From: an uncultured Akkermansia sp.
GTDB taxonomy: Bacteria > Verrucomicrobiota > Verrucomicrobiia > Verrucomicrobiales > Akkermansiaceae
Assembly (NCBI GenBank): GCA_947631435.1
Contig: CANRLM010000002.1
Coordinates: 6,522 to 70,521, forward strand
Reading direction: 5' to 3'
DNA length: 64,000 bases
Below the pieces are notes generated by a model. That model was not told where the DNA came from. It was given only the letters and a program-made list of their open reading frames with translations, and searched no databases. Shown here piece after piece: positions 31,838 through 56,007 of this stretch (positions within the stretch are counted from its first letter, which is position 1; every line of letters begins with the position of its first letter). The position numbers and the translations under genes were made by a program.

Positions 31838-32356
31838 ATGCCAGGAAGTAGTCAAAAATTCATCGGGCGGAACAGGGCGCCGCGCGTACAGATTGAATAC
31901 GATGTTGAGTTATACGGAGCAGAGAAGAAAGTCGACTTGCCATTTGTCATGGGAGTGATTTCTGATTTATCAGGCAAGTCCAATGAGGAATTGCCGCCTG
32001 TTGCCGAACGTAGCTTTGTGGAGATAGATGGGGACAACTTCAATGAACGCATGGAGAGTATGAAGCCCCGGGTAGCGTTCTCGGTGCCGAACGTGATCGG
32101 CGATGAAGGGAATATTGGGGTGGATTTGACATTCAAGAGCATGGAGGATTTTAACCCTGATGCTGTCGCGGCGAAGATTCCGGGAGTATCGGATTTGCTG
32201 GAGGCTCGTAAACAACTTGCCGCGTTGGTATCCTACATGGACGGCAAGGCGGGAGCTGAGGAGCTGATAGGAAAGATTTTGAAAGATCCGAGTTTGCTGA
32301 AGGCTCTTTCCGAGCAGAAAGCCACTAAGAAAGACGAACCCCAGGAAAACGCATAA
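31838..32356 (+). CDS. tssB: T6SS contractile sheath small subunit
   Basis: SSQKFIGRNRAPRVQIEYDVELYGAEKKVDLPFVMGVISDLSG; LLEARKQLAALVSYMDGK. Confidence 0.97.
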   Translation: MPGSSQKFIGRNRAPRVQIEYDVELYGAEKKVDLPFVMGVISDLSGKSNEELPPVAERSFVEIDGDNFNERMESMKPRVAFSVPNVIGDEGNIGVDLTFKSMEDFNPDAVAAKIPGVSDLLEARKQLAALVSYMDGKAGAEELIGKILKDPSLLKALSEQKATKKDEPQENA

Positions 32357-32361
32357 AAGCC

Positions 32362-33849
32362 ATGGCGGAAACACAGACTAATACCCAGGCGGCAGCCACC
32401 GAAGTGGTGGAACTGAACGATTTTGAGGCGTTGCTTGATCGTGAATTCCGACCCAAGAGCGAGAAAGCCAAAAGCGCCGTGCAACAAGCTGTCGGGACGC
32501 TTGCCACGCAGGCTCTCGGCAAGGCTAATGTCATCTCGGACGATGTGATCTCCACCGTGGAGGGGATGATAGCGGAGTTGGACAAGAAGCTGAGCGCTCA
32601 GATCAATGCGGTGATTCACCATCCGGACTTTCAGAAACTGGAGAGTGCGTGGCGGGGACTGCACTACCTGGTGAGTAACTCCGAAACGGATTCACACCTC
32701 AAAATTCGGGTGCTCAATGTCTCCAAAGATGAACTTGCCAAGAGCATCAAGAAGTACAAAGGTGCAGCGTGGGATCAGGATCCCCTGTTCAAAAAGCTCT
32801 ATGAAAACGAGTTTGGCTCTCCCGGCGGAGAGCCGTATGGCGCCCTGATCGCCGACTATTACTTCAGCCATCAGCCCAAGGATGTGGAAATACTCAAGGG
32901 AATGGGACGTATCTGCGCAGCGGCGCACTGCCCCATGATATCTGCCGCCGATCCCGCCCTCATGAACATGGACAGCTGGCAGGAGCTTTCCAATCCGCGT
33001 GACCTGAGCAAGATCTTCCAGACGCCGGAATACGCGGCCTGGAGGAGCCTGCGCGAGACGGATGACAGCCGCTACATCGCGCTGACCATGCCGCGTGTGT
33101 TGGCTCGTTTGCCCTACGGCGCTAAGACAACTCCCGTTGAAGGGTTCGCGTTTGAGGAAGAGACCGGGGCCGGAGATAACTCGGCATACACGTGGATGAA
33201 CGCCGCCTATGCCATGGGAGCTAACATCAATCGCTCCTTCAAGAAGTACGGTTGGTGCGCGTCCATACGCGGGGTGGAATCAGGAGGCATGGTGGAGGCG
33301 TTGCCGTGCCATACATTCCCCACGGACGACGGGGGCGTGGCTATGAAGTGTCCCACCGAAATAGCCATTACGGACCGCCGGGAAGCGGAACTCTCGAAGA
33401 ACGGATTCCTGCCTATCTGCCACTGGAAGAATACGGACTACGCCGTATTCATGGGAGGGCAGACCTTGAATAATCCGACGGTATACGATGACCCGGATGC
33501 GACGTCCAACTCCCGCCTCTCGGCATGCCTGCCGTACATTTTTGCAACAAGCCGTTTCTCGCACTACCTCAAGTGCATCGTGAGAGACAAGGTGGGCTCT
33601 TTCAAGAGCAAGGATGACATGCAGAAGTGGCTTTCCAATTGGATAGCCGGCTATGTAACGGCTGACCCGAATGCGGATGAATCCGTGAAGGCTCGCTATC
33701 CGCTGGCGGCTGCAGATGTGGTGATGGAGGACGTAGAGGGTAACCCCGGTTACTATTCTGCCAAGTTCTATCTGCGCCCGCACTTCCAGCTGGAAGGACT
33801 AACAGCTTCCCTGCGCCTGGTGACCAAGTTGCCGAGCGAGAGAAAATAA
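32362..33849 (+). CDS. tssC: T6SS contractile sheath large subunit
   Basis: HHPDFQKLESAWRGLHYLV, YENEFGSPGGEPYG, PRVLARLPYG, GWCASIRGVESGG, CPTEIAITDRREAELS, LRPHFQLEGLTASLRLV. Confidence 0.97.
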   Translation: MAETQTNTQAAATEVVELNDFEALLDREFRPKSEKAKSAVQQAVGTLATQALGKANVISDDVISTVEGMIAELDKKLSAQINAVIHHPDFQKLESAWRGLHYLVSNSETDSHLKIRVLNVSKDELAKSIKKYKGAAWDQDPLFKKLYENEFGSPGGEPYGALIADYYFSHQPKDVEILKGMGRICAAAHCPMISAADPALMNMDSWQELSNPRDLSKIFQTPEYAAWRSLRETDDSRYIALTMPRVLARLPYGAKTTPVEGFAFEEETGAGDNSAYTWMNAAYAMGANINRSFKKYGWCASIRGVESGGMVEALPCHTFPTDDGGVAMKCPTEIAITDRREAELSKNGFLPICHWKNTDYAVFMGGQTLNNPTVYDDPDATSNSRLSACLPYIFATSRFSHYLKCIVRDKVGSFKSKDDMQKWLSNWIAGYVTADPNADESVKARYPLAAADVVMEDVEGNPGYYSAKFYLRPHFQLEGLTASLRLVTKLPSERK

Positions 33850-54810: not shown

Positions 54811-54843
54811 TTCTCAACCCCGAAACTTAGCACTCACACGACT

Positions 54844-56007
54844 ATGAATGATCAACAACTCTTAGGATGGACGACGCCAATTGCCGGGGCAATGCCGGCT
54901 GGTGAAAATCTGGAATACGACCCGCGCATGGCGGAATTGGAAGAAAAGATGGCGGGGCAACCGGAGAGAACTATGGGTGACTCCGTGATTCCCGCTGAAC
55001 CTCCCGATTACAGAAAAATTGAAAAAGCTGCTGCTGCGCTGATGCAGGAGAGCAGGGATCTACGTATTGTTGTCATCTGGACGATAGCTCGCCTGGCTAA
55101 CGCAGGTGTGAACGGATTACTGGAGGGACTGAAGGTTATAGCCGCTCTCAGTGAAAATATGTGGGATGATTTGCTGCCGGTTCCAGACGACGGCGATGTG
55201 CAGGAGCGAATCAGCGCACTCACTCGTTTGTCGCCGATGCCGGGAAGTTTTGATGCGGATCGTTCCGTGCCCAGACTGTTGCTTGAAGTTCCTTTGACCG
55301 ATTCTCCCCAGTTGGGAGCGTATGGCTTGAGAGACGTGAATGAGGCGCCGGATGGGAGTGACGCTTCGCGTACGATTCATGCAGCTTTGCGTGACACTCC
55401 TGAGGAGAAGAAGACGCTATTGCTGCATGATCTTGAGGAAAGTCTGGAACTTCTAAAGCAGATACGTGATGTGTATGTTGCCCATAATCAAGGCACGCCG
55501 GATTTTAGCATGTTGAGCGACATGCTCAAGCAAATGCAGATTTTTCTCAGATTGCAGAGTGATGTTACCGTGGCTCCGCAACAGGCGACAGCGCGTGCAA
55601 AATCTGACAGTGGCGAAAAACCTACCCACGAAAGTTCTGGGACACAGGCGACCTCGGCGCCGCAGAATAGCCCGGTGGCTTCCTCTGCCGGTCTGGATAC
55701 TCAGGTCGGGCGGGCTGAGATGGTACGGCTCATGCATCAGGTGAGCGATTGGTTCAGAAAAAATGAGCCCTCCAGTCCGGTACCGTATTTTCTTCAACGG
55801 GCTATTCGCTCAGTTGGCGTGAGCTATATTGATTTGGTGGCGGATATTGATCCAAGCTCTATGGAAAGGGTACTCAATGTTCTCAAACCTGATGCGAAGC
55901 GCGAGAAAACGCCCGTGAAACCTGAAACAACTCCGGCCGCTGCTGCCCCCAATCCCTCTCCATCTTCCCAAGAGGAGGATGGATATTTCTCCCCTTTTGG
56001 AGGATAA
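54844..56007 (+). CDS. tssA: T6SS ImpA/TssA protein
   Basis: ImpA_N motifs (GENLEYDP, PPDYRKI, SRDLRI); C-terminal WFRKNEPSSPVPYFLQRA. Confidence 0.9.
   Translation: MNDQQLLGWTTPIAGAMPAGENLEYDPRMAELEEKMAGQPERTMGDSVIPAEPPDYRKIEKAAAALMQESRDLRIVVIWTIARLANAGVNGLLEGLKVIAALSENMWDDLLPVPDDGDVQERISALTRLSPMPGSFDADRSVPRLLLEVPLTDSPQLGAYGLRDVNEAPDGSDASRTIHAALRDTPEEKKTLLLHDLEESLELLKQIRDVYVAHNQGTPDFSMLSDMLKQMQIFLRLQSDVTVAPQQATARAKSDSGEKPTHESSGTQATSAPQNSPVASSAGLDTQVGRAEMVRLMHQVSDWFRKNEPSSPVPYFLQRAIRSVGVSYIDLVADIDPSSMERVLNVLKPDAKREKTPVKPETTPAAAAPNPSPSSQEEDGYFSPFGG

Follow-up and report, generated by a model that had tools for sequence, protein, structure and literature searches.

Does a gut Akkermansia carry a complete contractile weapon of its own, and if so, was that weapon inherited within its lineage or exchanged with related species? 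The question is raised by a stretch of 64,000 nucleotides (hereafter the window) of an uncultured Akkermansia sp. (GenBank assembly GCA_947631435.1, contig CANRLM010000002.1, positions 6,522 to 70,521), in which a sequence-only reading had recognised candidates for all 13 core genes of a type VI secretion system (T6SS), together with tagJ and a PAAR-like gene, in one intact and co-oriented cluster. Our analysis makes it quite likely that positions 31775–56007 hold a predicted functional, canonical H1 (i3-like) system of class T6SS-i, carried chromosomally by an uncultured Akkermansia from the rabbit gut, and that this system, with a neighbouring giant autotransporter, forms an island that has recently been exchanged among species of the genus.

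The component calls are based on profile searches of the open reading frames (ORFs) of the window against Pfam and NCBIfam, and they bear out the reading of an intact cluster. The region contains 17 ORFs with hardly any gaps between them (Table 1), all co-oriented on the + strand and none with a broken frame, and every expected component is present, including TagJ and a divergent PAAR-like tip. Profile matches cover 12 of the 13 core components; the last, TssJ, is backed by its predicted fold and by synteny. TssE and TssA score above the NCBIfam equivalog cut-offs. Divergence is evident in VgrG, TssL and TssM, which pass the Pfam cut-offs but fall far short of the NCBIfam ones. The ratio of nonsynonymous to synonymous divergence (dN/dS) against orthologues is 0.01–0.2 for all cluster genes, which are therefore under purifying selection and maintained.

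The weakest call of the sequence-only reading was tssJ, one of three small ORFs between the DUF6931 gene and tssK that show no family matches; two of these carry lipoboxes, and the third encodes a Gly/Thr/Val-rich protein of 95 residues. Pfam, NCBIfam and a 9-sequence profile run against the PDB all failed to match the lipoprotein at 46827–47342, and only fold comparison was successful. Its AlphaFold model, built on a 9-sequence alignment, has a pLDDT (predicted local distance difference test score) of 86, and the ten best Foldseek matches in the PDB are all TssJ (E 6e-5 to 7e-4), with Francisella IglE next; they include Serratia Lip (4a1r), P. aeruginosa TssJ1 (3zhn), SciN (3rx9) and the TssJ chains of 4y7o and 6ixh. 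Homologues lie directly 5' of tssK in Succinivibrionaceae, in a metagenome-assembled genome (MAG) labelled 'Verrucomicrobia UBA1727' and in others. On its modelled fold, this protein is TssJ, and it is through this assignment that the full set of core proteins (TssA–M, 13 of 13) is present. The upstream lipoprotein (46014–46532) is a weak paralogue (BLASTP E 7e-7) with homologues in Akkermansia loci only. The 95-residue protein reaches 16.5 bits against PF05488 (cut-off 27), with motifs reading LPIA and LPMA, and the five best PDB matches of a 22-sequence profile of its family are all PAAR spike tips (E 0.002–0.27). The family is conserved, with homologues 38–97% identical in 21 aligned relatives, and many relatives have the gene placed after clpV. 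In relatives, DUF6931 homologues adjoin either vgrG or both the PAAR-like gene and tssJ, and the gene is probably a conserved spike-adjacent accessory of this T6SS clade. The DUF6931 model is all-helical (pLDDT 71), and neither a profile search against the PDB nor a Foldseek search with this model gave a meaningful match.

With TssJ, TssL and TssM all present, the system belongs to class T6SS-i and the T6SS-iii of Bacteroidota is therefore excluded, a distinction already drawn from the sequence and now upheld by the DotU and IcmF-related_N matches, the TssM helices and Walker A motif, and the TssJ fold. A motif and hydropathy scan places the TssM transmembrane helices at residues 51–69 and 499–517 and the Walker A motif at 146; the periplasmic part, of ~1185 residues, is very long and divergent and matches no model, and TssM has no sequence match in the PDB. 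A tandem duplication at the TssM C-terminus was considered and rejected, as self-BLASTP and a comparison of residues 1301–1500 with 1501–1702 returned only a 6-residue YPYF motif (E 0.43). The best PDB match of TssC is TssC1 of the P. aeruginosa H1-T6SS (5n8n_B, 746 bits), with the next match at 537 bits, V. cholerae VipB/TssC entries including 3j9g and 5urw at ~360–374 bits and Francisella IglB at 246 bits. Judged by the TssC–TssC1 match, the presence of TagJ and the H1 gene order, the system is predicted to be H1/i3-like.

The likeness to the P. aeruginosa H1-T6SS (subtype i3) thus comprises TagJ, the nearest TssC and the order tssB-tssC-hcp-tagJ-tssE-tssF-tssG-clpV-vgrG, which we take to correspond to PA0083–PA0091 in an H1 cluster spanning PA0074–PA0091. 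The two systems nevertheless differ in several respects: in Akkermansia, tssA follows tssM instead of preceding tssB, all genes form a single co-oriented block, TssM is ~500 residues longer, there are two TssJ-like lipoproteins, VgrG bears a 440-residue hydrophobic extension, a DUF6931 gene is present, and the cluster holds no Tse/Tsi-type effector pair that we could find. Fha, PpkA, PppA, TagF and TagQRST are likewise missing from the 17 ORFs by Pfam and NCBIfam (for Fha, PpkA, PppA and TagF, the search was confined to these ORFs); the Fha-PpkA-PppA-TagF control module, which works through threonine phosphorylation, is typical of H1 systems but not strictly defining.

To place the locus within the genus, we compared the genome of the window (G000) with other genomes of the genus (other G-numbers), with individual loci carrying L-numbers. 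TssC was found in 16 of the 151 species genomes, none of them among the complete single-contig genomes, and at the level of the family in 13 of 251 genomes and 3 of 20 genera. Three T6SS lineages are present in Akkermansia: lineage A (the genome of the window, G027, G014, G056, G110, G134, G042 and G057), lineage B (G050, G021, G061, G127 and G092) and lineage C (G111, G117 and G086). In a tree of the 80 best loci of a pattern-based search, TssC of all three forms one clade (support 100), whose sister (support 96) is a clade of TagJ-bearing T6SS-i clusters from Planctomycetota, Puniceicoccales, Chthoniobacteraceae and some Burkholderiales (L035–L080); the clade made up of TssC from gut Succinivibrionaceae, Sutterella, Treponema and Lentisphaerota lies farther away. 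At the genus level, the system looks old and associated with the Planctomycetota–Verrucomicrobiota–Chlamydiota group, rather than recently taken from gut Proteobacteria. The earlier description of the machine as proteobacterial-type holds insofar as it is a T6SS-i, but is loose as a label, since the sister TagJ clade is dominated by Planctomycetota and other Verrucomicrobiota. The sister clusters share TagJ and the core gene order with Akkermansia, and their TssC is 66–70% identical; their other core proteins, however, are only 24–40% identical, and they have no detectable homologue of the Akkermansia VgrG, second lipoprotein, PAAR-like protein or DUF6931. Their tssA lies upstream of tssB, as it does in all non-Akkermansia relatives examined, whereas in Akkermansia it ends the cluster.

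Two observations on individual loci of this survey may be added here. In G086 of lineage C (C3:1-60000, L167–L169), vgrG and the DUF6931 gene lie upstream of tssB, and no homologue of tssK, tssL, tssM, tssA or tssJ was detected within 36 kb downstream of clpV; its membrane-complex genes may be elsewhere or too diverged to detect. In addition, four near-identical T6SS contigs of Succinivibrionaceae or Rhodospirillaceae type (L032, L033, L034 and L081), all from one project, were binned under the labels Akkermansia muciniphila, Bacteroidaceae, Firmicutes CAG:534 and Limosilactobacillus gorillae, and are almost certainly binning errors, not evidence for a T6SS in the labelled taxa.

Within lineage A, the T6SS genes are far more similar between species than the core genes with which they were compared. 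Between the window and G027, synonymous divergence (dS) is 0.06–0.19 for the T6SS genes, compared to 1.16 for rpoB and 1.05–2.93 for cydA, cydB and prfA; the corresponding values are 0.27–0.65, 1.68 and 1.01–2.27 for G014, and 0.31–0.57 (0.90 for tssA), 2.11 and 2.28–3.49 (cydAB only) for G056, while for G110, G134 and G042 the T6SS genes are at 0.25–0.71 with rpoB above 2 or saturated. For any given pair of genomes, the T6SS dS is thus 4–10 times below the core-gene dS, even where the core genes share a contig with the T6SS, and identity to G027 falls from 92.6% to ~80% at 56331/56340, within one contig. Similarly, the T6SS of G110, G042 and G057 are 95–96% identical, compared to 79% for rpoB of G042 and G057 (the rpoB figure being for that pair only), and the T6SS alleles differ by 3–14%. 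Lineage B shows the opposite, with T6SS genes 73–82% identical and more diverged than rpoB (83–91%), as expected for vertical descent.

The gene trees and the flanks point the same way. Approximately unbiased (AU) tests reject the rpoB clades G056+G057 and G110+G134+G042 on the T6SS data and the T6SS clades on the rpoB data, with p values from 1e-43 to 1e-100; in the rpoB tree, the eight lineage A species are interleaved with seven T6SS-negative species, some of which may have lost the locus in assembly of the MAG. The right flank, downstream of tssA, differs in all four species in which it is readable: it is cydAB in G000, DNA located on contig C11 of G000 in the case of G027, a gene located on C42 of G000 in the case of G056, and other genes followed by an inverted cyd operon in G134. 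The divergence of these flanks (68–83%) is typical of the species, and a single mis-binned contig is thereby ruled out as an explanation. One rabbit sample, Lapin-001, yielded both G014 and G042. The left housekeeping flank (5301–10984) also has a low dS against G027, G014 and G142, which fits replacement of a long tract by homologous recombination. From these comparisons, the locus, usually with the giant autotransporter, is shown to be a ~45-kb island (11151–56331) that has evidently been exchanged recently among Akkermansia species. The claim of long-term residence made in the sequence-only reading is therefore only partly right: at the level of the genus, TssC in three lineages forms one clade and the system looks old, but for the lineage of the window the dS contrast, the conflict in the AU tests and the differing flanks contradict it.

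As a separate observation on the same pair of genomes, a segment outside the island (L257 7791–8930 against C11:31451–32592) is 97.6% identical between G000 and G027 although their rpoB is 85% identical, and the two genomes look mosaic beyond the T6SS island.

The edges of the island are marked by similarity and by short repeats (Table 1). Similarity to G042 begins at the left-edge copy of an intergenic element of ~185 nucleotides with an A-rich interior and perfect 19-nucleotide inverted repeats (ATCTCTTTTCGAAAGAGAT ... ATCTCTTTCGAAAAGAGAT), copies of which precede both the giant gene and tssB. The motif of this element has 49 matches in the genome, mostly in pairs ~167 nucleotides apart, and no match in Rfam; it could be an element resembling a miniature inverted-repeat transposable element, a promoter cassette or a structured RNA. 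The giant autotransporter gene, with a G+C content of ~0.61, lies upstream of the T6SS in G056, G042, G110 and G027, and is missing in G014 and in a variant from sample X4; the G014 deletion junction falls between two copies of the inverted-repeat element. A functional link between the autotransporter and the T6SS, for example the holding of prey cells, is pure speculation on our part.

The genome also holds at least 16 copies of an ISL3-like insertion sequence (IS), the 75-nucleotide end of which is found at the start of the contig (C2:1-75, outside the window) and in 15 other places, mostly contig ends, with a transposase C-terminus motif just inside it on C83. The same end, 100% identical, stands at a contig end of G056, another species, which suggests an IS common to several species. 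The last 30 nucleotides of the island weakly resemble this end (two 13-nucleotide matches, E 0.29 each), a likeness that is suggestive only. Finally, an Rfam and tRNA search found no RNA family or tRNA in the window, and there is therefore no tRNA-type insertion site in it.

Table 1. Positions in the window of the island edges, repeat elements, giant autotransporter and T6SS genes, with the matches or features on which each call is based.
Feature	Position	Strand	Basis or remark
Left island edge, copy of short intergenic element	11151–11397		bounded by palindromes ATCTCTTTTTGAAAGAGAT and ATCTCTTTCAAAAAGATAT
Giant autotransporter, 6679 aa	11443–31482	+	C-terminal PF03797 beta-domain, 7.1e-34, sole Pfam match; type Va
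Second inverted-repeat element copy	31582–31765		directly 5' of tssB; 19-nt arms, 100% complementary, 146 nt apart
tssB (small sheath subunit)	31775–32356	+	PF05591, 1.4e-56
tssC (large sheath subunit)	32362–33849	+	PF05943, 2.6e-135; also PF18945
hcp (tssD, tube)	33885–34415	+	PF05638, 4.6e-30
tagJ (ImpE family)	34494–35285	+	PF07024, 1.2e-28
tssE (gp25-like baseplate)	35302–35811	+	TIGR03357, 60.9 bits, above cut-off; PF04965
tssF	35827–37572	+	PF05947, 5e-93
tssG	37545–38546	+	PF06996, 1.8e-69
clpV (tssH)	38568–41222	+	AAA_2, AAA, AAA_lid_9, ClpB_D2-small
vgrG (tssI), 1158 aa	41296–44772	+	PF05954, 50.6 bits; weak DUF2345 match
DUF6931 protein	44788–46017	+	PF22011, 2.9e-17
Second TssJ-like lipoprotein (LAGC lipobox)	46014–46532	+	BLASTP paralogy to 46827–47342 protein
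PAAR-like spike tip, 95 aa	46537–46824	+	PF05488, E 0.0099; family profile vs PDB
tssJ (outer-membrane lipoprotein, LTGC lipobox)	46827–47342	+	predicted fold, synteny
tssK	47370–48743	+	PF05936, 2.1e-53
tssL (DotU)	48740–49705	+	PF09850; one transmembrane helix, aa 180–198 (hydropathy)
tssM, 1702 aa	49702–54810	+	PF14331; TIGR03348 for N-terminal part only
tssA (last gene of cluster)	54844–56007	+	PF06812; TIGR03363, 171 bits, above cut-off
Right island edge	56008–56331		similarity ends at 56008–56009 for G056 and G134, at 56331 for G027

The assignment of the host, initially only a deduction from the sequence, also stands. The source is a 2.43-Mb MAG, 98% complete, with a G+C content of 0.55 (0.54–0.57 for the T6SS), in the same GTDB genus as 150 others. 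On the left, the island is flanked by an rRNA-methyltransferase-like gene, a class II aminoacyl-tRNA synthetase gene and a gene for a carboxylase/decarboxylase alpha subunit (labelled oadA), and on the right by cydAB and prfA; for these verrucomicrobial housekeeping genes, the best-matching sequences are labelled as uncultured Akkermansia sp. and derive from rabbit ('Lapin') samples, and other Verrucomicrobiales come next. Two complete genomes of the genus have an RpoB with 71% identity to that of the window's genome, with a long branch between them in the rpoB tree, such that the clade of the window is far from these complete genomes, which presumably derive from cultured strains. The sequencing runs that hold the locus are rabbit gut metagenomes and a second, independent gut study. 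Zero-mismatch unitigs in three samples from two studies span the tssA–cydA junction, unitigs with 0–1 mismatch in three samples span the autotransporter–tssB junction, and chains of overlapping unitigs span the oadA–autotransporter junction. A chimeric or non-verrucomicrobial contig, which would have undone the original proposal, was thus looked for, and the unitigs crossing the junctions show that the contig is not chimeric.

These data bear directly on whether the pattern could be produced by assembly or binning, that is, by a chimeric T6SS contig or by the contig of another organism mis-binned into several Akkermansia MAGs. Such an error could be suspected because a region that is 88–98% identical among related species, two of them from Lapin-001, fragments assemblies (the G027 locus is spread over at least four contigs), and because other bins clearly hold foreign T6SS contigs. 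We consider it highly improbable, however, as zero-mismatch unitigs from independent studies cross both T6SS junctions, the T6SS contigs of G000, G014, G056 and G134 bear Akkermansia core genes with species-matching divergence, and the alleles are too far apart for a single contig to have been reused across bins. A different objection is that the locus is an old, vertically inherited resident of its chromosomal site that most Akkermansia species have lost, long-term residence having been the original view. It would account for the well-supported clade of all Akkermansia TssC apart from other phyla, for a G+C content matching that of the host, for the lack of a visible integrase, and for the fact that genomes rank alike by T6SS and by rpoB identity to the window (G027 > G014 > the rest). 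For lineage A, it is nevertheless contradicted by the depressed T6SS dS, seen even against genes on the same contig, by the strong incongruence of the trees and by flanks that differ between species, and in lineage B, where the T6SS does evolve vertically, the locus diverges faster than rpoB, not slower; we therefore regard simple inheritance as quite unlikely.

Recent exchange of a functional machine remains our preferred interpretation, and several points that weigh against it have to be set beside it. All genomes compared are MAGs, and T6SS-negative calls may be losses in assembly or binning. Core divergence was gauged by rpoB and three genes of the flank rather than by average nucleotide identity over whole genomes, and the clades subjected to the AU tests were picked after the trees had been seen. 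An empty site was sought in the close T6SS-negative relative G142, but its two contigs break off no more than ~85 bp from where the island begins and ends, such that absence and assembly failure are indistinguishable. No RNA sequencing run holding tssB–hcp was found, no effector–immunity pair was identified, and a search of the genome gave no Rhs repeats and no second VgrG, Hcp or PAAR. Furthermore, inspection of the 78.9-kb contig (flanks by Pfam, outer 15 kb by eye on the first ORF residues, window positions 60.4–64.0 kb left out) revealed no ORF for an integrase, a conjugation protein or a transposase, and the same scan gave no sign of carriage by an integrative and conjugative element, that is, of an integrase with transfer genes, but just the IS end at the contig start. 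The route of transfer is therefore something we only infer; it would probably be recombination, in a genome rich in insertion sequences.

Taking the known roles of these families as a guide, TssJ, TssL and the unusually long TssM would form the envelope-spanning complex, and TssE, TssF, TssG and TssK, with a VgrG trimer capped by the PAAR-like tip, the baseplate. TssA would prime the Hcp tube to polymerise within the TssBC sheath, contraction of which would fire the spike into a neighbouring cell, after which ClpV, with TagJ, would recycle the contracted sheath. The sole cargo candidate within the cluster is the hydrophobic, lineage-specific C-terminal extension of VgrG, of ~440 residues, in which a hydropathy scan finds two Gly-rich hydrophobic segments (residues 952–970 and 1010–1028). 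Pfam and PDB searches gave no match for this extension and no relatives outside VgrG proteins; in a protein collection of 5.8 billion clusters, the C-terminal part has just 6 relatives, all of VgrG length.

Such a machine would most likely be used to antagonise, on contact, competitors that share the mucus niche of the gut. It could instead be a real machine directed against eukaryotes (cells of the host epithelium, gut protists or fungi), or serve uptake or signalling, and the lack of a recognisable antibacterial effector–immunity pair, the membrane-like helices of the VgrG extension, and an adjacent giant adhesin that could attach to any cell type would all be compatible with this. On the other hand, the closest characterised system, the H1-T6SS of P. 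aeruginosa, is antibacterial. The sharing of the locus among related species also resembles that of the antibacterial GA1 and GA2 systems of Bacteroidales, which are T6SS-iii on integrative conjugative elements common to several gut species (PMC8632748), and we accordingly find a non-bacterial target rather unlikely. In both cases, one T6SS locus is present in several related gut species, discordant with the species tree, with two carriers from the same animal. The Akkermansia locus differs in its class (i instead of iii), in showing no integrase or conjugation genes, and in being 88–98% identical between species rather than near-identical, such that the transfers would be older or recombinational.

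More tentatively, it is possible that the adhesin and the T6SS circulate by recombination, as a ~45-kb island devoid of integrase and conjugation genes, among related Akkermansia species of rabbit and bird guts, and that a common weapon, presumably with common immunity, shapes which species of the genus coexist. The island might then also carry parts that have so far gone undescribed, namely the spike-associated DUF6931, an over-long TssM with a second TssJ paralogue as its partner, and lineage-specific VgrG C-terminal helices acting as a membrane-inserting effector with no separate toxin gene.

A literature search combining Akkermansia, Akkermansiaceae or Verrucomicrobia with T6SS, VgrG or TssC found no paper describing an Akkermansia-encoded T6SS, in line with the initial remark that no system is known to have been characterised in Akkermansiaceae; the literature found casts Akkermansia only as a bystander or victim of the T6SSs of other bacteria. 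A genus-wide comparative study of 367 genomes makes no mention of T6SS (PMC10540074). In GenBank and UniRef, proteins of Candidatus Akkermansia intestinavium and intestinigallinarum, both chicken-gut MAGs, bear the machine-given names 'type VI secretion system contractile sheath large subunit' and 'tube protein Hcp', and these entries share 90%-identity clusters with the proteins of the window. The T6SS is thus new as a described feature of the genus, although the machine itself is canonical and its genes have already been annotated automatically. Akkermansia is a much-studied gut commensal and a probiotic candidate, and about one in ten of its species genomes, all of them uncultured, encodes a complete predicted contact-dependent weapon. 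Together with the movement of the locus between species, this makes competition and exclusion among lineages of Akkermansia open to concrete tests, and it carries the pattern of a shared T6SS, as seen in gut Bacteroidales, into a second phylum and into another class of T6SS.

Two minor features of the remaining window sequence are also of note. A small hydrophobic-protein ORF at 56365–56596, directly 5' of cydA and ~30 bp past the point at which similarity to the cyd flanks of relatives starts, probably belongs to the cyd operon. At the other end, positions 1–4400 form a block of low G+C content (0.43–0.44) with small orphan ORFs, a Sel1 repeat, a TM2 domain and a weak DUF6077 match. Because similarity to the nearest relatives begins only beyond it, at 4395 for G027 and 5300 for G014, this block appears to be a strain-variable array.

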